DNA from: Somniosus microcephalus | Lineage: Eukaryota | DNA: 64,000 nt | Reading direction: 5' to 3' | Assembly: GCA_052327205.1 (NCBI GenBank) | Contig: CM126218.1 | Span: 70,494,001-70,558,000 of the forward strand | Shown: in pieces, positions 1-38,859 of the stretch | How the letters are laid out: every line of letters starts with the position of its first letter | Numbering within the stretch: the first letter of the stretch is position 1 | The notes under the pieces: generated by a model | What the model was told of the DNA's origin: nothing | Database searches by the model: none | The model's input: the letters and a program-made list of their open reading frames with translations, nothing else | Program-made: the position numbers and the translations under genes

Positions 1-1070
1 TCCCGATCGGGTCCGGGACGCCGACGCTGAGGTAGGTCCCGGGGGCGGCGCTACGAGGGGTATTGCGGTCGGGGTCGGGCCCGAGTCCCAGAGTCGCGAA
101 CTGTACCTGGAATACACCTCGAGGTCCCGCTGGGTCACTTCTAGCGAGTAGGCCAAGGCTGCAGCTGTGTTCAGGTCGAGGTCCTTTGATTCCAGCAGTC
201 TCTGCCGTGAGTAGTCGGACCGAAGGCCTTTCACGAAGGCATCGCGGATGTTATCTTCAGTGTTTTCTGCAGCCGATACTGCTTTAAAGTCACAGTCCCT
301 GCCGAGTGTTCATAGCGCCCGTAAAAATTCAGCTACAGACTCTCCTGGCTGTTGCGGGCGGGATCTTAGGAGGTGTCTGGCATACATGGAATTTACCGGG
401 CTCCGGTACTGCTGTTTCAGTAGGTTGATAGCGGCCTCGTAAGTAGTAATGTCCTGGATGAGTGCGTATACTTTAGGGCTCGCTTGGGCGGTCAGAACTC
501 TTAGTTTGGATCTCTGAGGGACGCCGGATTCTTCCAGGTAGGATTCGAAGCAGCACAGCCAGTGTTTGAAGTCGAGGGCTGCGTTTGTTGCTTGTGGGTT
601 TAGATCCAGGTACGGTGGTTTGAGGGCTCGCAGCCAAGCCGGCTGCTGTGGCTGTTGTAGCTGGGCGTCTGGCTGGTCGTTTGGCTGCTCCGTTGACTGG
701 TTGTTTGGCTGCTCAAGTGACGACATTTTAAAATTTAGTCAATAAAATTGATATACCTATCAATTCGTCCAATGAAAAGCGACGAGTTAAGAAAGTAACT
801 ATAGGTTTTTATTGACTAAATAACAGAGCCCACCCTCGTGGGTGATCGGATCCAAGAAGGAGGAATACCAGCCAGTCGACCACCTTTATACCTGGGCCGG
901 TAGGTGGAGCCATGGGCGGAGTCGGCAGTGGTCAGCCCAGGTATAGCAGCGTGACAAGAGGCGACCTCGTACAGTGATACAACAATGTGAACAGTGATAA
1001 CTATAGGGAAACGATCTAACAGTGATAACTATAGTGTAACGATAGTGAACGGTAAAAGTGGTTTACCACA
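1..1070 (-). mobile_element. Gypsy/Ty3-type LTR retrotransposon, 5' end (LTR + degenerate gag); continues beyond window start
   Basis: Minus-strand gag-like ORF from ATG at 726 (LKPPYLDLNP...FKHWLCCFESYL...YARHLLRSRPQQPGESVAEFLRAL). After an in-frame TGA at 310-312 the frame continues gag-like (DCDFKAVSA...IRDAFVKGL...RQRLLE). An upstream TG...CA-bounded LTR is present. Confidence 0.85.
749..1070 (-). repeat. 5' LTR (about 322 bp) of the Gypsy element
   Basis: Minus strand starts TGTGGTAAACC (1070) and ends GGTATATCA (749); TATAAA at 890-885 and AATAAA at 813-808. The partner LTR is outside the window, so the ends cannot be confirmed by comparison. Confidence 0.7.
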
Positions 1071-2292: not shown

Positions 2293-3131
2293 CAACAAAC
2301 CACGGATGCATATTAATGCATTTGGTAAATCATGGCTGTAATGGAAGAAACATAGAAGATAGGAGCAGGAGTAGGCCATTCGGCCCCTCGAGCCTGTTCC
2401 GCCATTCAATGAGATCATGGCTGATCATCCAAATTCAGTACCCTATCCCTGCTTTCTCACCATATCCCTTGATCCCTTTAGCCTTAAGAAATATATCTGT
2501 AGTGTATGTGCCTTTAAGAGCCCCACGTGTACTGTAATGCCGGTAATGGCCACTCGGGCTATATAAGCCTGTATATTGTGTTGTATCAGTTAGTTCCCCT
2601 CCAGACTTTGTTTAGTAAACACCTATGAAACCAACTCCTGTCTTCAGTGTCTCTATCAACACACAGACACAACAGTGGCGACGAATTGGAAACGGACTTA
2701 CCTGCAATTCGGCAGCACCTCAAGGACATCGATTCCTCTGGCGTCCAAAGTTGAAGAAAAATCAAGAAAAAGCTGTGGTTTCACCAGCTAGCCAAGCTGG
2801 TGGCAGGTACTGCAATAATCCTTCCTGGGCGTCGGGCTGGGGCTCCAGCAGCTGGCTCTACAGCTAGGCCAAGCAGCGAAAGCGGAGGCAAGCAGTAACA
2901 GACGGGGAGGGAGCACGCGGGAGACGGCTGGCGCTGCAAGCAGGTCGGCGTTCAGACCTAGAGAGGGAGTCCGGCAGGAACGACTCTCCAACTGTAAATA
3001 ATAAATGAAAAGAATGGAAACCGCGGGAAACAGCGTTGTCATCGGCAGCAGCAGCGAGGAAGTGCGGGAAGCGCCATATCTTTTCTGCAGAAAAGAAAGA
3101 AAAGCGCGGGAAGCGCCATTTTTTTTCTAGG

Positions 3132-4058
3132 ATGCCTAAGTCTGGCAATATTGATGCTTTTGATAACGAGATAGAGGATTGGACCACATATGTGGAAAGA
3201 GTGGAGGTATATTGCACCGCAAATGGAATAGAAGATGAAAAAAAAGCTTCAGTACTGCTAAATCTAATGGGCGCAAAGACATACGGGTTGTTACGAAATT
3301 TAATCACTCCAGCCAAACCAAAGGACAAGAATTTTAAAGAAATTGTTGATACCCTACAGGAGCACTTAAACCCAACACCGCTGCTGATAGCGGAACGATT
3401 CAAATTCTTCAAGAGAAATCAACACAAGAATGAAAGTAACGCTGATTACCTCACCGAATTAAGAAAGCTATCAAAACACTGCCAATTCGGGGCAGGACTA
3501 GCAGATTATCTTCGAGACAAATTCGTCTGCGGTCTCTTAAGTGAAGGAACACAGAAAAGGCTGCTTTCTGAAAAAGATTTAACACTGGACAAGGCTTTCA
3601 GTATGGCTGTATCATACGAAGCAGCCGCAAGAGGAGCTGCAGAGATACAACAAAAGGCACAGGACTTCGGCACCCATGAAATGACACAGGGTTTCGAGAG
3701 ATGTTATCGCTGCGGCAGATCCACTCATGACCAGAGGGACTGCTGGTTCAAGGACAAAGCATGCAGGCAATGCGGAAAGATTGGACACATTGCACGGGTA
3801 TGCCGATCTGGACAAAAAAAATCCACAGGCAGGAAAAAAAAAATCAATAAAGAAAAGTACAGAAAGGTACAAATGATGACGGACAGTAGCTCCGAAGACC
3901 AGAAGAGCGATAGCGACTCCGAAAACAAGAGACTAAGCTGTCTCAAATTACATAATGTAATTGCCAAAGATGATTACCAGACCATTTGGGTTATCCTCAC
4001 GATAGCAGGGTCCCCAGTTAAAATGGAGCTAGATACAGGATCAGCTCTGGCCGTCATA
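3132..4058 (+). CDS. Gypsy Gag with two CCHC zinc knuckles plus start of aspartic protease (truncated by deletion)
   Basis: CYRCGRSTHDQRDC and CRQCGKIGHIARVC knuckles; MELDTGS protease catalytic motif, after which homology breaks. Confidence 0.85.
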
Positions 4059-4059
4059 A

Positions 4060-5688
4060 ATCGACAGGGAAGCACTCAGCCTGGTATGGGGAGTGAAGAA
4101 ATTCAACCATTACCTACACGGACAAAAATTTACCTTGTTGACTGACCATCAACCCCTCATCTCCATATTCAACCCTAAAAAGGGTGTTCCCATTATGACA
4201 GCGCAAAGGCTACAGAGGTGGTCCCTTTTTCTAGGGGCACACCAATACAACATAGAATACAAAGGATCAAAACAGCATGGGAATGCTGACGGGTTATCGC
4301 GCCTACCGTTGCCAACGGTAGAAGAAGCACCTACCGTAGACCCAGTGGAGATTTTCCACTCTACCACAGTCGAATGTCTACCAGTAACAAATTCTGCCAT
4401 TGAAAGTGAAACTAGAAATGACCCGACTCTCTCACGAGTCTACGATTTAACAGTGAAGGGATGGCCAGCACATGGCGAACCACTGTTGCCAGCATTCTCG
4501 CAAAGAAGAGAACAGCTGTCAGTGTGCCGAGGAACCTTGATGTGTGGATCCAGAGTGGTGATTCCACCCAAACTCCAGGATAAAGTTCTAAAGGAGCTTC
4601 ACGAGGGGCATCTGGGTGGAGTGAAAATGAAGAACCTCGCCAGGGCGTTTGTATGGTGGCCAGGTATCGATGGAGACATCGAAGAAATGACCAAGAGCTG
4701 CCTGGGATGCCAGAAGGTCCAAAACGCTCCACCCCAAGCCCCTCTACATCCATGGGAGTGGCCCTCATCTCCCTGGCAAAGGGTACACATCGACTTTGCT
4801 GGTCCATTTATGGACTCAATGTTCTTAATCACGGTTGATGCACACTCCAAGTGGCCGGAGGTAATAAAGATGTCCTCCACCACCACGGAAAAAACTATCA
4901 CAGTATTAAGGACCATATTTGCCAGGAATGGGCTGCCGGAACAGATCTGTTCTGATAATGGACTGCAATTTGTGTCCGAAGAATTCAGGAAGTTCTTAAA
5001 AAACAATGGGGTTAAGCACTACACGTCCGCCCCATACCATCCCGCCACCAATGGATTGGCTGAAAGGTTTGTCCAGACCTTCAAGAAGGCCATAAAGGCC
5101 ATGGGTAATGAAGACATAAAACTTCAGCACAAGGTGGATAACTTCTTGTTCGCATACAGGAATGCAACACATATGGTTACAAACCAAACTCTCGCCATGA
5201 TGTTCTTCAATAGAAGCCTAAGATGCCGGCTGGATTTGATCAAGCCCAACATCAGAAGGGACGTGGAGAACCGGCAATTTCAAGGCATGAATGAAAGGCC
5301 AACTAGAACCTTCCAGATAGGTTAACAAGTTTTGGCCCGGGACTACCGTACCGAGAAATGGCAGCCTGGAACTATCTGCACACGACTAGGACCGCTGATG
5401 TATACCGTGGACATCGGAGAAAGCATAATAAGGCGCCATGCTGACCAAATCATAGAGTCATCCGAAAAGGGACAACCTACACCACAACTCTATACACCTA
5501 ACGATGAAGTAGAGATACCCATATCTAGCTCCGATCCGGTGATACTGGAACCCGATGAACCCGACACTGGCATTCAAGCCGAATCAGCCTTGCCAAAAGA
5601 ACCTACTACACCACCAGAAACTACTACACCACCGAGGCGTTATCCAGACCGAGTCAGGAAGGCTCCAGAGAGACTGACTTATAATTAA
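4060..5688 (+). pseudogene. Gypsy pol remnant: RNase H C-terminus + integrase (HHCC, DDE, GPY/F), with one internal stop
   Basis: REALSLVWGVKKF...TDHQPL (RNase H end), ADGLSR, LHEGHLG...CLGC, RVHIDFAGP, SDNG, NGLAERFVQT; TAA at 5323-5325 before RLGPLMYTV. Confidence 0.9.
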
Positions 5689-7329
5689 TTAAATGCAGCA
5701 TTGTGTAGATTATTTTTCTTGTAACATGTAATTAATAATTACTTAAAATATTATGTACTGGTTGGCTAAAAGGGGAGGAATTGTAGTGTATGTGCCTTTA
5801 AGAGCCCCATGTGTACTGTAATGCCGGTAATGGCCACTCGGGCTATATAAGCCTGTATATTGTGTTGTATCAGTTAGTTCCCCTCCAGACTTTGTTTAGT
5901 AAACACCTATGAAACCAACTCCTGTCTTCAGTGTCTCTATCAACACACAGACACAACAATATCCAACTCCTTCTTGAATATATTTAATGAATTGGCCTCT
6001 ACTGCCTTCTATGGTAGAGAATTCCACAGGTTCACCACTCTCTGGATGAAGAAATTCCTCCTCATTTCTGTCCTAAATGGCTTACCCCTTATCCTTAAAC
6101 TGTGACCCCTGGTTCTGGACTCCCCGACCATTGGGAACATCCTTCTTGCATCTAGTCTGTCTAGTCCTGTTAGAATTTTATAAGTTTCAATGAGATCCCC
6201 TCTCATTCTTCTAAACTCCAGCGAGTAGAAGCCCAATCGACCCAATCTCTCCTCATACGTCATTCCTGCCATCCCAGGTATCAGCCTGGTGAATCTTCGC
6301 TGCACTCCCTCCATGGCAAGAACATCCTTCCTCAGATAAGGCGACCAAAACTGCACACAATACTCAAGATGTGGTCTCACCAAGGCCCTGTACAACTGCA
6401 GCAAGACATTCTTGTTCCTGTACTCAAACCCTCTCGCTACGAAGGCCAACATACCATTTGCCTTCTTAACCGCCTGCTGCACCTGCATGCTTACCTTCAG
6501 CGACTGGTGCACAAGGACACCCAGGTCTCGTTGCACTTCCCCTTCTCCCAATCTATTGCCATTCAGATGATAATCTGCCTTCCTGTTTTTGACACCAAAG
6601 TGGTTAACCTCGCATTTATCCGCATTATATTGCATCTGCCATGCTTCTGCCCAATCACCCAAACTGTCCAAATCATGCTGGAGTTTCTCAGCATCCTCCT
6701 CACAGCACACACTCCCACCCAGCTTTGTGTCATCTGCAAACTTGGAGATATTACATCTAGTTCCCTCATCTAGATCATTAATATATATTGTGAATAGCTG
6801 GGGTCCAAGGACCGATCCCTGCGGTACCCCACTAGTCACTGCCTGCCACTCGGAAAAAGAGCCGTTTATTCCAACTCTTTGCTTTCTGTCTGCCAACCAG
6901 TTCTCTATCCAAGTCAATACCTTGCCCCCAATCCCATGTGCCTTAACTTTACACACTAATCTCTTATGTGGGACCTTTTCGAAAGCCTTTTGAAAGTCCA
7001 AATACACCACATCTACTGGTTCTCCCTTATCTATTTTACCAGTTACATCCTCAAAAAATTCCAGTAGATTAGTCAAGCATGATTTACCTCTCAAAGTCTC
7101 TCAAGAGTCAGTGAGCAGTAAGAAATTTTAACCCTCGGTGTACCATAACCCAAGAAAGAAGAATAACATAACACCATTGACAAAAATACTTCATTCTTAT
7201 CGCACTCATCAAAGTGATTAATCTTCATGTGTAAGTCTCGGCAGATTCCTTAACAACAGCATAAGAGCCCAAACCCACTCAACAGTCACTTCCTGGTAGG
7301 GGTCAGTGGAGTAGAAGAAAGAATGAATA

Positions 7330-10114: not shown

Positions 10115-11883
10115 GCTCCTGGCCGGCCTCCCACCTTGCACCTCCCATAAAGCTGAGCTCATCCAAAACTCTGCTGCCCCTATCCTAGCTCGCACCAAGT
10201 CCCGTTCACCCCCACAGGCCCGAGTCCTAACTTGCACCAAGTCCCGTTCACCCCCCGAGCCCCTATCCTAGCTCGCACCAAGTCCCGTTCACCCCCCGGG
10301 CCCCTATCCTAACTCGCACCAAGTCCCGTTCACCCCACAGGCCCCTATCCTAGCTCGCACCAAGTCCCGTTCACCCCCACAGGCCCGAGTCCTAACTCGC
10401 ACCAAGTCCCGTTCACCCCCCGAGCCCCTATCCTAACTCGCACCAAGTCCCGTTCACCCCCACAGGCCCGAGTCCTAACTCGCACCAAGTCCCGTTCACC
10501 CCACAGGCCCCTATCCTAGCTCGCACCAAGTCCTGTTCACCCCCACAGGCCCCTATCCTAGCTCACACCAAGTCCCGTTCACCCCCCCGGGCCCCTATCC
10601 TAACTCGCACCAAGTCCCATTCACCCCCCGGGCCCCTATCCTAGCTCGCACCAAGTCCCGTTCACCCCACAGGCCCCTATCCTAGCTCGCACCAAGTCCT
10701 GTTCACCCCCACAGGCCCCTATCCTAGCTCACACCAAGTCCCGTTCACCCCCCCAGGCCCGTGTCCTAACTCACACCAAGTCCCATTCACCCCCCCAGGC
10801 CCCTATCCTAGCTCGCACCAAGTCCCGTTCACCCCCCGGGCTCCTATCCTAACTCACACCAAGTCCTGTTCACCCCCACAGGCCCCTATCCTAACTCGCA
10901 CCAAGTCCCGTTCACCCCCCAGGCCCCTATCCTAACTCGCACCAAGTCCCGTTCACCCACCCAGGCCCGTGTCCTAACTCGCACCAAGTCCTGTTCACCC
11001 ACCCAGGCCCGTGTCCTAGCTCGCACCAAGTCCCGTTCACCCCCCGGGCCCCTATCCTAACTCGCACCAAGTCCCGTTCACCCACCCAGGCCTGTGTCCT
11101 AACTCGCACCAAGTCCTGTTCACCCCCACAGGCCCCTATCCTAACTCGCACCAAGTCCCGTTCACCCCCCGGGCCCCTATCCTAACTCGCATCAAGTCCC
11201 GTTCACCCACCCAGGCCCGTGTCCTAACTTGCACCAAGTCCCGTTCACCCACCCAGGCCCGTGTCCTAACTCGCACCAAGTCCCGTTCACCCACCCAGGC
11301 CCGTGTCCTAACTCGCACCAAGTCCTGTTCACCCCCACAGGCCCCTATCCTAGCTCGCACCAAGTCCCGTTCACCCCCCAGGCCCCTATCCTAACTCGCA
11401 CCAAGTCCCGTTCACCCCCACAGGCCCGAGTCCTAACTCGCACCAAGTCCCGTTCATCCATCACCCCTGTGCTCGCTGACCTACTTTGACTCCCGGTCCA
11501 GCAACGCCTCGATTTGAAAATTCTCATCCTTATTTTCAAATCCCTCCATGGCCTCGCCCCTCCCTATCTCTGCAATCTCCTCCAGACACACAACCCCCCG
11601 AGATATCTGCGTTCCTCTAACTCTGGCCTCTTGTGCATCCTCGACTTCCTTCGCTCCACCATTGGCGGCCGTGCCTTCAGTTGCCGAGGCCCTAAGCTCT
11701 GGAATTCCCTCCCTAAGCCTCGTTGCCTCTCTGCCTCTCTCTCCTCCTTTAAGACACTCCTTAAAACCTACCTCTTTGACCAAGCTTTTGATCCTAATAT
11801 CTCCTTTGACAATGCTATTGTGAATCGCCTTGGGATGTTTTACTATGTTGAAGGAGCTATATAAATACAAGTTGTTGCTGTTG
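10115..11883 (+). mobile_element. L2-type LINE 3' fragment carrying an internal minisatellite expansion
   Basis: IQNSAA..ILARTK...HITPVLADL, FKSLHGLAPPYL, GRAFSC..PKLWNSLP, FKTLLKTYLF; tail gcgcttggga...ctatataaatacaagttgttg. Confidence 0.88.
10176..11456. repeat. About 40-bp minisatellite (about 32 units) derived from L2 ORF2
   Basis: Unit gcccctatcctaactcgcaccaagtcccgttcacccccacag with variants. Confidence 0.95.
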
Positions 11884-19334: not shown

Positions 19335-19880
19335 CATAGAAACATAGAAGATAGGAGCAGGAGTAGGCCATTCGGCCCCTCGAGCCTGCTCCACCATTCA
19401 CTGAGATCATGGCTGATCATCCAAATTAAGTACCCTGTCCCTGCCTTCTTCCCATATCCCATTAGCCTTAAGAAATATATCTAACTCCTTCTTGAATATA
19501 TTTAATGAACTGGCCTCCACTGCCTTCTGTGGTAGAGAATTCCACAGGTTCACCACTCTCTGGGTGAAGTAATTCCTCCTCATCTCTGTCCTAAATGGCT
19601 TACCCTTTATCCTCAATTCATTAAATATATTCAAGAAGGAGTTGGATATATTTCTTAAGGCTAAAGGGATCAAGGGATATGGGGAGAAAGCAGGGACAGG
19701 GTGCTGAATTTGGATGATCAGCCATGATCGCATTGAATGGCGGAGCAGGCTCGAGGGGCCGAATGGCCTACTCCTGCTCCTATCTTCTATGTTTCTTAGA
19801 CTGTGAGCCCTGGTTCTGGACTCCCTGGCCATCGGGAACATCCTTCCTGCATCTAGTCTGTCTAGTCCTGTTAGAATTTT
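19335..19880 (-). mobile_element. Young CR1 3' fragment containing an inverted copy of its own 3' end, all inserted in a Deu SINE
   Basis: Near-identical to 2346-2497/5959-6180; about 19614-19796 is the same 3' end in the opposite orientation; SINE halves at about 19185-19332 and 19885-19975. Confidence 0.85.
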
Positions 19881-33710: not shown

Positions 33711-34690
33711 GCGAGAAGAGAACTGTGGCTTAGACTGACTGCCTGAGGAGTGTGGCAATATGCCAGGCTGTGACATGTGAATAGGGCAGGGCCACTGAAT
33801 CCCTTGTCATGAGCCGTGGACATAAGCTCATTACTTCATTCCCAGACTGACTTGGGGCGTAGTACTTTTATTAAACCCAATCACACAATAACATTGCTCA
33901 GCAGCAAAGCCTCTACAGATGTCACTAGCCACTTCTTAGCAAGACAGGGGTTGAGGCTAATCACTGGAGGGAGGGGAGGGGGGCATGGTACTGCAGGAGT
34001 CATTTGAAGTAGAGGTTTTTCCTTCACTTCCTCTCCTGAAGGTGCTAACTTCAGGTTCAGTTTTGCAGACAGCGGGTGCCCTTTTGGCAATGTAACCTTG
34101 TAGCCATTCTTCTAGACACACAGCCTAGATAGTGAGTGACTACAAGCTATTTGACTGTGAGGGCATCAAAGCCTTCCCTTTTCCAATATTTGCTCTCGCG
34201 CTTGTGTGCGCACACAATTTCCAGCAGGAAACCGCTGGATAGCAGTAGCAATCACGCGAGGCTGATTCTTTTCTTTCTATTTCCTTTCTAGTTGCAGCGC
34301 CTGAACCACCGTCTCAGCAGAGACCAGAGAGTTCAGCACATGGCCGGTCCTGAAACCCATCTCTGGTAGCCAATCAGTTGGATTGGCCATTAGTGCCTGG
34401 CCTGGGTCAGGAGCCAATTGGGCTTTGGGAAAGATGTGCTTCATTAAGAACCTGCTTGCATGATATCAGATTTACAAATAAGTGGATTGGACTGTAGCTG
34501 CTAACCTGGAGTGAGATTTTCTATTTAAGCTCCTCCAGCGTGCTATGCACACACAGCAGGGAGTAGAATAAAGCACTTACTGTTGATCAGTACTCTAATA
34601 CCAGGAAACCTTTTCAACTGAAGTCTTTTGTCTCCTCCTTTTCTCCCACTAACGTTCTCAGCTGCCTCTCACCTCCTCCCCCAAGGGTGT

Positions 34691-37600
34691 TGAATCATTC
34701 CTGGGGTACGGATCCACACCCCACCACTGAATCATTCCTGGGGTACGGATCCACACCTCACCATTGAATCATTCCTGGAGTACGGATCCACACCTAACCA
34801 TTGAATCATTCCTGGGGTACGGATCCACACCCCACCACTGAATCATTCCTGGGGTACGGATCCACACCTCACCACTGAATCATTCCTGGGGTACGGATCC
34901 ACATCCCACCACTGAATCATTCCTGGGGTACGGATCCACACCTCACCACTGAATCATTCCTGGGGTACGGATCCACACCCCACCACTGAATCATTCCTGG
35001 GGTACGGATCCACACCTCACCACTGAATCATTCCTGGGGTACGGATCCACACCCCACCACTGAATCATTCCTGGGGTACGGATCTACACCTCACCATTGA
35101 ATCATTCCTGGAGTACGGATCCACACCTCACCATTGAATCATTCCTGCGGTACGGATCCACACCTCACCATTGAATCATTCCTGGGGTACGGATCCACAC
35201 CTCACCATTGAATCATTCCTGGGGTACGGATCCACACCCCACCACTGAATCATTCCTGGGGTACGGATCCACACCTCACCATTGAATCATTCCTGGAGTA
35301 CGGATCCACATCTAACCATTGAATCATTCCTGGGGTACGGATCCACACCCCACCACTGAATCATTCCTGGGGTACGGATCCACACCTCACCACTGAATCA
35401 TTCCTGGGGTACGGATCCACATCCCACCACTGAATCATTCCTGGGGTACGGATCCACACCTCACCACTGAATCATTCCTGGGGTACGGATCCACACCCCA
35501 CCACTGAATCATTCCTGGGGTACGGATCCACACCTCACCACTGAATCATTCCTGGGGTACGGATCCACACCCCACCACTGAATCATTCCTGGGGTACGGA
35601 TCTACACCTCACCATTGAATCATTCCTGGAGTACGGATCCACACCTCACCATTGAATCATTTCTGGAGTACGGATCCACACCTCACCATTGAATCATTCC
35701 TGCGGTACGGATCCACACCTCACCATTGAATCATTCCTGGGGTACGGATCCACACCTCACCATTGAATCATTCCTGGAGTACGGATCCACACCTCACCAT
35801 TGAATCATTCCTGGGGTACGGATCCACACCTCACCATTGAATCATTCCTGGGGTACGGATCCACATCTCACCACTGAATCATTCCTGGGGTACGGATCCA
35901 CACCCCACCACTGAATCATTCCTGGGGTACGGATCCACACCTCACCACTGAATCATTCCTGGGGTGCGGATCTACACCTCACCACTGAATCATTCCTGGG
36001 GCACGGATCCACACCTCACCATTGAATCATTCCTGGGGTACGGATCCACACCTCACCATTGAATCATTCCTGGGGTACTGATCCACACCTCACCATTGAA
36101 TCATTCCTGGGGTACGGATCCACACCTCACCATTGAATCATTCCTGGGGTACGGATCCACACCTCACCATTGAATCATTCCTGGGGTACAGATCCACACC
36201 TCACCATTGAATCATTCCTGGGGTACGGATCGACACCTCACCATTGAATCATTCCTGGGGTACAGATCCACACCTCACCATTGAATCATTCCTGGAGTAC
36301 GGATCCACACCTCACCATTGAATCATTCCTGGGGTACGGATCCACACCTCACCATTGAATCATTCCTGGAGTACGGATCCACACCTCACCATTGAATCAT
36401 TCCTGGGGTACGGATCCACACCTCACCATTGAATCATTCCTGGAGTACGGATCCACACCTCACCACTGAATCATTCCTGGGGTACAGATCCACACCTCAC
36501 CATTGAATCATTCCTGGGGTACGGATCCACACCCCACCATTGAATCATTCCTGGGGTACGGATCCACACCTCACCATTGAATCATTCCTGGGGTACGGAT
36601 CCACACCTCACCATTGAATCATTCCTGGGGTACGGATCCACACCTCACCATTGAATCATTCCTGGGGTACGGATCCACATCCCACCATTGAATCATTCCT
36701 GGGGTACGGATCCACACCTCACCATTGAATCATTCCTGGGGTACGGATCCACACCTCACCATTGAATCATTCATGGGGTACAGATCCACACCTCACCATT
36801 GGATCATTCCTGGGGTACGGATCCACACCCCACCATTGAATCATTCCTGGGGTACGGATCCACATCCCACCACTGAATCATTCCTGGGGTACGGATCCAC
36901 ACCTCACCATTGAATCATTCCTGGGGTACGGATCCACACCCCACCATTGAATCATTCCTGGAGTACGGATCCACACCTCACCATTGAATCATTCCTGGGG
37001 TACGGATCCACACCTCACCACTGAATCATTCCTGGGGTACGGATCCACACCTCACCACTGAATCATTCCTGGAGTACGGATCCACACCCCACCATTGAAT
37101 CATTCCTGGGGTACGGATCCACACCTCACCACTGAATCATTCCTGGGGTACGGATCCACACCTCACCATTGAATCATTCCTGGGGTGCGGATCCACACCT
37201 CACCACTGAATCATTCCTGGGGTACGGATCCACACCTCACCATTGAATCATTCCTGGGGTACGGATCCACACCCCACCACTGAATCATTCCTGGGGTACG
37301 GATCCACACCTCACCATTGAATCATTCCTGGGGTACGGATCCACACCCCACCACTGAATCATTCCTGGGGTACAGATCCACATCCCACCATTGAATCATT
37401 CCTGGGGTACGGATCCACACCTCACCACTGAATCATTCCTGGGGTACGGATCCACATCCCACCATTGAATCAGTCCTGGGGTACGGATCCACATCCCACC
37501 ATTGAATCATTCCTGGGGTACGGATCCACACCCCACCATTGAATCATTCCTGGGGTACGGATCCACACCTCACCATTGAATCATTCCTGGGGTGCGGATC

Positions 37601-38755
37601 CACACCTCACCACTGAATCATTCCTGGGGTACAGATCCACACCTCACCATTGAATCATTCCTGGGGTACAGATCCACACCTCACCACTGAATCATTCCTG
37701 GGGTACGGATCTACACCTCACCATTGAATCATTCCTGGGGTACGGATCCACATCTCACCACTGAATCATTCCTGGGGTACGGATCCACATCTCACCACTG
37801 AATCATTCCTGGGGTACGGATCCACACCTCACCATTGAATCATTCCTGGGGTACGGATCTACACCCCACCACTGAATCATTCCTGGGGTACGGATCCACA
37901 CTTCACCATTGAATCATTCCTGGAGTACGGATCCACACCCCACCACTGAATCATTCCTGGGGTACGGATCCACACCTCACCATTGAATCATTCCTGGGGT
38001 GCGGATCCACACCTCACCACTGAATCATTCCTGGGGTACGGATCCACACCTCACCATTGAATCATTCCTGGGGTACGGATCCACACCCCACCACTGAATC
38101 ATTCCCGGGGTACGGATCCACACCTCACCATTGAATTATTCCTGGGGTACGGATCCACACCTCACCATTGAATCATTCCTGGGGTACGGATCCACACCTC
38201 ACCATTGAATCATTCCTGGGGTACGGATCCACATCCCACCATTGAATCATTCCTGGGGTACGGATCCACACCTCACCATTGAATCATTCCTGGGGTACAG
38301 ATCCACACCTCACCATTGAATCATTCCTGGGGTACGTATCCACACCTCACCATTGAATCATTCCTGGGGTACGGATCCACACCTCACCATTGAATCATTC
38401 CTGGGGTACGGATCCACACCCCACCATTGAATCATTCCTGGGGTACGGATCCACACCTCACCATTTAATCATTCCTGGGGTACGGATCCACACCCCACCA
38501 TTGAATCATTCCTGGGGTACGGATCCACACCCCACCATTGAATCATTCCTGGGGTACGGATCCACATCCCACCACTGAATCATTCCTGGAGTACGGATCC
38601 ACATCCCACCACTGAATCATTCCTGGGGTACGGATCCACACCTCACCATTGAATCATTCCTGGGGTACAGATCCACATCCCACCACTGAATCATTCCTGG
38701 AGTACGGATCCACATTCCACCACTGAATCATTCCTGGGGTACAGCTCCACACTCG
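34691..38755. repeat. 37-bp minisatellite, about 110 units (about 4.1 kb), in the NRF1 last intron
   Basis: Unit tgaatcattcctggggtacggatccacacctcaccat (contains BamHI GGATCC); period 37 read directly (34691, 34728...). Confidence 0.97.
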
Positions 38756-38859
38756 ACCATCACTCCTGCCAAGTGACCATTATTCAGGTGTGAACCCCGA
38801 CAATACTCGCTTCAGGGGCCTACTCATCAACTCATTCTATGTCCATACACACTTCTAGC

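Follow-up and report, generated by a model that had tools for sequence, protein, structure and literature searches.

Minus-strand DNA synthesis in LTR elements must start next to the end of the 5' LTR, and the question raised by this locus is what primes it in an element that carries no TGG-type tRNA site there. The stretch of Somniosus microcephalus DNA analyzed here, called the window, is 64 kb long, and its positions 1070 to 1, read on the minus strand, are the 5' end of a Gypsy-type LTR retrotransposon. No TGG-type tRNA site was found directly after the LTR of this element, in agreement with the preliminary description of the sequence, and the position that follows the LTR is instead the perfect complement of a segment of the element's own LTR. 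The features of the locus are as follows.

749..1070, minus strand: 5' LTR of 322 bp, TG...CA, with heterogeneous read loose ends at 749 and 1070
885..890, minus strand: TATAAA, candidate TATA box from the sequence, 69 nt upstream of the arm
807..821, minus strand: LTR arm of 15 nt, the putative self-primer, ending in AATAAAA; identified by complementarity, with a variant at 815 that pairs with 739
808..813, minus strand: AATAAA, candidate poly(A) signal inside the arm, found by hexamer search
801..806, minus strand: ACCTAT, forming the 5' half of the inner stem and following the arm without a gap; the variant at 802 disrupts its fifth pair
755..760, minus strand: ATAGGT, forming the 3' half of the inner stem and located 6 nt short of the LTR end, found by folding and stem search
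748, minus strand: one-base spacer between the LTR end and the primer-binding position; the same offset of 1 occurs in 8/8 relatives
733..747, minus strand: primer-binding position, perfect complement of 821-807, without TGG, found by complementarity search
1..726, minus strand: 5' part of gag, running off the window edge, assigned by gag homology, with a stop codon at 310-312

The LTR boundary had been placed at 749 from the letters alone, and it holds: other copies of the family diverge at this position into unrelated flanks in both reads and contigs, with support from 71 reads of RNA run X13 (agreement of 0.40), 181 reads of RNA run X14 (0.37), and 23 in contig set X2 (0.41). The LTR start at 1070 is marked by 73 reads (agreement of 0.44), again with unrelated flanks beyond it. 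Self-comparison found no second LTR copy within the 64-kb window; the 3' LTR, pol, and the target-site duplication of this copy lie outside it. The gag ATG at 726 is located 22 nt past the LTR end, the distance originally given, and the gag frame of the window copy is interrupted by the stop codon. The match to the Retrotrans_gag domain is weak and under the cut-off, and comparison of the window gag with proteins gave 15 matches to Gypsy-type polyproteins at 30 to 52% identity. The gag start (655-727) is a 12-nt repeat region that is highly variable among expressed copies, and the upstream part of the LTR (990-1043) contains two 26-nt direct repeats, 28 nt apart, of which the RNA reads show an additional copy in some family members.

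Positions 733-747 and 807-821 form an inverted repeat of 15 nt that is 100% complementary, with the two arms 59 nt apart, so that the pairing proposed in the preliminary description is borne out base for base, as is its position one nucleotide from the LTR boundary, with 748 as the lone intervening base. Allowing up to two mismatches, the arm/site sequence matches just these two places in the whole window. The 15-nt match was reproduced in 0/5000 shuffles of the last 150 bases of the LTR, and only 1/665 other CA[AT]TT sites in the window and the fetched loci gives a self-match of at least 10 nt. That single exception, at window position 19615 on the plus strand, is a 27-nt perfect fold-back that does not belong to an LTR and lies at a junction of interspersed repeats.

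The neighboring sequence provides a negative control. A second Gypsy element at 2498-5958 on the plus strand, which we take to be of the Mag/SURL type, has 177-bp LTRs that are 99.4% alike, a TGG primer site, gag, and an RNase H-integrase region, with most of the protease and reverse transcriptase (RT) apparently missing. Its TGG lies one base past the LTR, and its best self-match is 5 nt. The element studied here resembles such Mag/SURL-type elements in being an animal Gypsy with short LTRs and a zinc-knuckle gag but differs from this neighbor, which has a TGG site and no self-match. Elsewhere in the window, self-comparison revealed long tandem arrays at 10176-11460 and 34690-38760.

Related elements were used to determine whether the geometry extends beyond this copy. 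Of 12 loci fetched, L004 and L005 were set aside because they are the element already represented by L003, and L009 (a 3' LTR alone) and L011 (a fragment) were dropped as well, leaving 8 distinct relatives with a junction. In the metagenome scan, with patterns taken from pol and confirmation against gag, 5/602 stretches passed; three scans of viral contigs found no relative. The LTR end is backed by a second LTR in L001, L003, L007, and L012, and in L002, L006, L008, and L010 it was derived from a CA[AT]TT motif near gag, a procedure that favors arms ending in AA.

The complementarity is kept at the same offset in all 8 relatives, which answers the conservation check that the first description had called for. 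Six of them (L001, L006, L007, L008, L010, and L012) have a perfect self-match of 13 to 15 nt at offset 1, each with 0/5000 shuffles as good, and the other two have near matches (11/12 in L002; 13/15 in L003, or 14/15 against its 3' LTR). A TGG start is absent from all nine junctions, i.e., the window element and the 8 relatives. In the seven perfect cases the gag ATG lies 18 to 28 nt past the LTR, and in six of the seven the match is flanked by at least two unpaired positions at its end, the exception being L001, where 5 further pairs follow beyond one mismatch. The distance from the arm to the LTR end varies from 23 to 58 nt across elements. When a site is compared with the LTRs of other families, the match averages 5.25 nt, with a maximum of 11 over 72 cross pairs.

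Chance, or a one-off template-switch fold-back in the window copy, might account for the self-match of a single element, given that the region is AT rich and that fold-backs occur in the window (the 27 nt at 19615). This explanation is refuted by conservation, since the feature is present in family copies from three organisms and in 8/8 relatives, and it can effectively be dismissed. The self-complementary feature is real and beyond chance.

The relatives L006 to L012, filed as bacterial bins, are most likely animal DNA carried along. Three of these loci (L006, L008, and L010) are contigs of 3949 to 4023 nt with overlapping ends and a single LTR, found in bacterial bins, and are either one-LTR circles or collapsed assemblies of intact elements. 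L001 (5792-7811), L003 (5476-7482), and L012 are internally deleted elements that retain both LTRs and the self-complementary site. In L002, L003, L010, and L012, a pyrimidine tract followed by CAG was seen by eye at distances upstream of the arm that range from a few nucleotides to about 30; a pattern search for it caught L003 and L012 only. The tract resembles a splice or trans-splice acceptor and could shorten the leader before the primer.

Variation within the family was surveyed over 712-905 in RNA runs X13 and X14, which were chosen by species label, and in contig sets X2 and X4. Among the 40 of 53 variants listed, the only ones inside the two 15-nt arms are at 739 and 815, which are exact pairing partners, and their joint change turns a U-A pair into C-G. 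The variant shares at 739 and 815 are 47 and 63% in X13, 59 and 65% in X14, 69 and 58% in X2, and 62 and 66% in X4, counted position by position, so that the shares say nothing on co-occurrence within copies; the two variants are likely to be linked, i.e., carried by the same copies. Covariation of the two 15-mers, suggested earlier as a check, is thus found as compensatory variants at partner bases, each counted separately. Variant density is lower in the arms (2/30 positions) than elsewhere (32/164), but not significantly so (P = 0.067, from the same 40 of 53 variants), and the inverted repeat was found in family copies of three organisms. The locus adds a compensatory change that is segregating within one very abundant family.

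Copies of the family are transcribed, as gag reads in X13 run about 10:1 in the direction expected for sense RNA, assuming the usual stranded library. Among the loose ends listed for X13 and X14, none marks an RNA start or a poly(A) site or tail. On the plus strand at 825-826, 18 RNA reads of X13 carry the same foreign sequence fused to the LTR at 825, directly after a T-rich tract ending in CAG; this junction resembles one between a host exon and an antisense splice acceptor adjoining the arm.

The same data bear on whether the position after the LTR is read by a host molecule. An internal tRNA fragment or another host small RNA could prime synthesis, with the match to the LTR being secondary, and half-tRNA primers without TGG are described for copia elements in the available text of PMC6317226. 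Priming by such an RNA is difficult to reconcile with nine sites that differ from one another and yet each match their own LTR, or with change within the family that tracks the LTR. No tRNA gene was found in the window, and an Rfam search of 700-1100 gave no tRNA-like match. Priming by a host RNA is consequently regarded as very unlikely.

The arm is the likely primer because it is the sole partner found for the position after the 5' LTR. The preferred reading, to which a rough probability of 0.75 is given from sequence and from analogy, is that this piece of the element's own RNA primes minus-strand DNA synthesis instead of a tRNA, as in Tf1 of fission yeast. In Tf1, the RNA's initial 11 bases pair with the site, and RNase H cleaves between base 11 and base 12 (PMC7175516, available text); the binding site at the end of the cDNA later receives a copy of the primer (PMC11042837, available text). 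A comparable sequence of events can be proposed for the shark element. The nascent RNA would fold so that the arm (821-807) pairs with 747-733, and it would then be cut right after the A run at 807, adjoining the short inner stem, probably by the element's RNase H, as in Tf1. The RT would extend the new 3' end over the one-base spacer and copy only 58 nt back to the cut, and the short DNA would jump to the 3' LTR by way of the segment that runs from the cut to the poly(A) site. Poly(A) cleavage falls some 10 to 30 nt past the hexamer, and a primer that ends at the poly(A) signal could be explained by the jump, because a cut there would leave just enough repeat for it. Plus-strand synthesis would finally copy the still-attached primer and rewrite the binding site. 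Through such copying, the site would stay perfectly Watson-Crick complementary to the arm; the copying suggests a primer of 13 to 15 nt and fits both the compensatory change and the abrupt limits of the match. Self-priming predicts a primer 3' end at 807 and a first DNA base opposite 748. The preliminary description had offered self-priming as one candidate function; its sequence signature is now strongly supported by the compensatory change and by 8/8 relatives, whereas the priming itself is something that we infer from that signature.

AATAAA, ATTAAA, and AGTAAA are common poly(A) hexamers, and the AATAAA at 813-808 is the sole instance of these three in the last 250 nt of the LTR. The terminal hexamer of the arm is AATAAA in the window element, L007, L008, and L012; ATTAAA in L002, L006, and L003 (by its 3' LTR); AGTAAA in L010; and GTTAAA in L001. 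Thus, 8/9 arms end in one of the three (L003 by its 3' LTR). None of the nine elements has a TATA box some 30 nt upstream of its arm, the nearest being at -50, -69, -143, and -154. The arm may therefore differ from that of Tf1 in not being the RNA 5' end, in which case a second cut or some other source of primer would be needed. The 5' end of the primer could be set by a TATA-less start at the arm, by a second cut around an internal primer, or by the trimming of a 3'-end RNA.

The last of these possibilities amounts to a different source for the same pairing, in which priming is done by the arm as present in the 3' LTR, or by a short RNA from early polyadenylation in a 5' or solo LTR, trimmed to the duplex and acting in trans. 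A trimmed RNA would directly explain why the primer ends at a poly(A) signal, as the arm does in the 8/9 elements ending in AATAAA, ATTAAA, or AGTAAA, and the missing TATA box at the distance expected for an arm that starts the RNA points the same way. It is nonetheless considered unlikely, as the 4- to 6-bp stem adjoining the arm in 9/9 elements fits a substrate folded in cis, as in Tf1, and trimming from the 3' side leaves the sharp far end of the match unexplained.

A broader proposal may be put forward tentatively, at well below even odds: a Gypsy clade found across animals would draw its primer from within its own RNA, the poly(A) signal determining where the 3' end of the primer falls, and one helix of 13 to 15 bp would thereby make the primer, fix the length of the repeat for the first jump, and shut the 5' poly(A) site. 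In contrast to Tf1, priming would not use the capped 5' end; it would require either a second cut or a trimmed RNA derived from polyadenylation.

Occlusion of the 5' poly(A) site had been suggested at the outset as a second function of the hairpin. Folding predicts that AAUAAA is closed only when the site is present (unpaired probability of 0.00 to 0.16 with the site versus 0.42 to 0.71 for the LTR alone), but L007 has a second AATAAA that lies outside the pairing and is left unpaired, and the arm of L001 has no listed poly(A) signal. On this modeling, the hiding of the 5' poly(A) signal is likely to be a side effect rather than the main purpose. There is precedent for such control, since the HIV-1 5' poly(A) site is repressed by an RNA hairpin (PMC2645353, available text) and retroviral poly(A) suppression in the 5' LTR is described in the available part of PMC3694450.

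Hiding the signal could alternatively be all that the hairpin does, with something else acting as the primer. The predicted drop in the accessibility of AAUAAA, the presence of the pairing partner only after the 5' LTR, and the HIV-1 example would all suit this explanation. It does not account for the fixed one-base offset from the LTR end in 9/9 elements, there is no other primer site in the seven perfect cases, where the gag ATG follows within 18 to 28 nt of the LTR, and the second unpaired AATAAA of L007 and the missing signal of L001 are difficult to accommodate. Occlusion as the sole role is accordingly judged quite improbable. The HIV-1 poly(A) hairpin resembles the structure described here in that a stem at the 5' end is predicted to enclose AAUAAA; it differs, as far as the available text describes it, in lying within R and being present at both ends, whereas the partner found here is outside the LTR, takes up the primer-binding position, and pairs at the 5' end alone.

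Beyond the 15-nt duplex, the 151-nt region folds at z = -3.13, with 0/200 shuffles as good. The 6-bp extension (760-755 with 806-801) that had been described as lengthening the stem does exist in this copy, and the form that bulges out the LTR end is particular to its family. The variant at 802 breaks it in 23 to 42% of the read depth, which is not equivalent to copy number for this family, and no partner change is present among the 40 of 53 variants listed. In the relatives, a stem of 4 to 6 bp also adjoins the arm, but its partner lies anywhere from 2 to 36 nt ahead of the LTR end. The idea that the extension is a conserved closing stem was rejected, given the variant at 802 and the varying position of the partner. 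A stem of this kind begins at the first base after the arm in 9/9 elements (combined P of about 0.03) and is not significant in single elements, where 48 to 289 of 500 shuffles are as good. The motif RCCT...AGGY is present in 7/9 stems (L012 by its 3' LTR), with other paired letters in L008 and L010.

The proteins place the element among animal Gypsy elements. Its gag relatives are single-frame polyproteins of about 1200 amino acids with two zinc-knuckle-like motifs, protease, RT, RNase H, and integrase; those with names come from nematodes, a flatworm, cnidarians, a sea cucumber, a shrimp, an insect, hagfish, and cartilaginous fish. The TG...CA LTR followed by gag and the order protease-RT-RNase H-integrase, found in 6/6 gag relatives scanned, are traits of Ty3/Gypsy. 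No Chromo match at E 0.1 was found in the same 6/6 relatives, and there was no chromodomain in the precomputed domains of the 120 relatives listed. The element is thus not a Tf1/sushi member by domain content, as tested on the domains of its relatives. A tree of RT-RNase H was built from 71 rows, with 6 short proteins left out, and included 7 chromodomain-bearing proteins, none of them a named Tf1/sushi sequence. In this tree, 32 relatives form one branch (SH-aLRT of 100; stem of 0.61) apart from the 7 chromodomain-bearing proteins. Nesting within the latter was weakly rejected (p-AU of 0.03, on 31 of the 71 rows and for a group picked after the tree had been seen), and a sister position was not rejected (p-AU of 0.42). 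It is possible that self-priming arose independently in this clade.

Self-priming Tf1/sushi chromoviruses include Tf1 and Tf2 of Schizosaccharomyces pombe, Tj1, and Tosmo1-3 (available text of PMC7175516, PMC4600332, bioRxiv 10.1101/2022.12.06.519325, and PMC11042837). The clade described here resembles them in lacking a tRNA site, in having a position after the 5' LTR that is complementary to its own LTR, and in showing extra pairing beside the primer duplex. In contrast to them, it has no chromodomain match in 6/6 relatives and its RT-RNase H forms its own branch; the match is 13 to 15 nt long, compared with 11 nt; and it ends at a poly(A)-signal-like hexamer 23 to 58 nt before the LTR end. 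In Tf1 the primer constitutes the RNA 5' end, whereas in the present elements the arm may not do so. The "pretzel" of Tf1 comprises three duplexes in which both sequences adjacent to the site pair to the LTR (bioRxiv 10.1101/2022.12.06.519325, available text). A rough exact-match test gave no evident pretzel here, as the flanking duplexes are 2 to 5 bp, except for 9 bp in L008, and an inner stem follows the arm instead.

Self-priming has also been predicted in the plant lineages Tcn1 (gypsy) and TAR/Houba/Osr-1 (copia), so that it is known from more than one lineage (PMC6317226, available text). As in the present case, those predictions rest on at least 10 nt complementary to the LTR and located 0 to 5 nt after it. 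They concern plant and fungal elements, whereas the link to the poly(A) signal is a feature of the animal clade, as far as the available text allows comparison. A search for the motif of the clade's RT gave no match in 5 text supplement files of PMC6238403 or in the searched part of PMC8556966, and the available portions of PMC5006619, PMC2864245, PMC6934838, and PMC3601003 deal with other elements lacking a tRNA site or with general LTR motifs and do not cover the clade.

A search of the open literature, with Repbase, GyDB, and subscription journals lying outside it, found no title or abstract start describing self-priming in this clade. Some Repbase entries do mention self-priming, and a prior description for this clade is possible. 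The reading favored here is that a chromodomain-less clade of animal Gypsy elements primes itself in the manner of Tf1, using a primer that ends at a poly(A)-signal-like hexamer.

The literature available here links self-priming to the Tf1/sushi chromoviruses and to a small number of plant lineages. A further clade, separate from these and with the taxon range described above, would make tRNA-free priming a common strategy in animals. It also offers a solution to the problem that the 5' poly(A) site poses for a compact LTR. Element finders that require a tRNA site would miss such elements. Silencing by tRNA fragments acts at the primer site (PMC7472051, available text), and elements that prime from their own RNA would be expected to escape it there.
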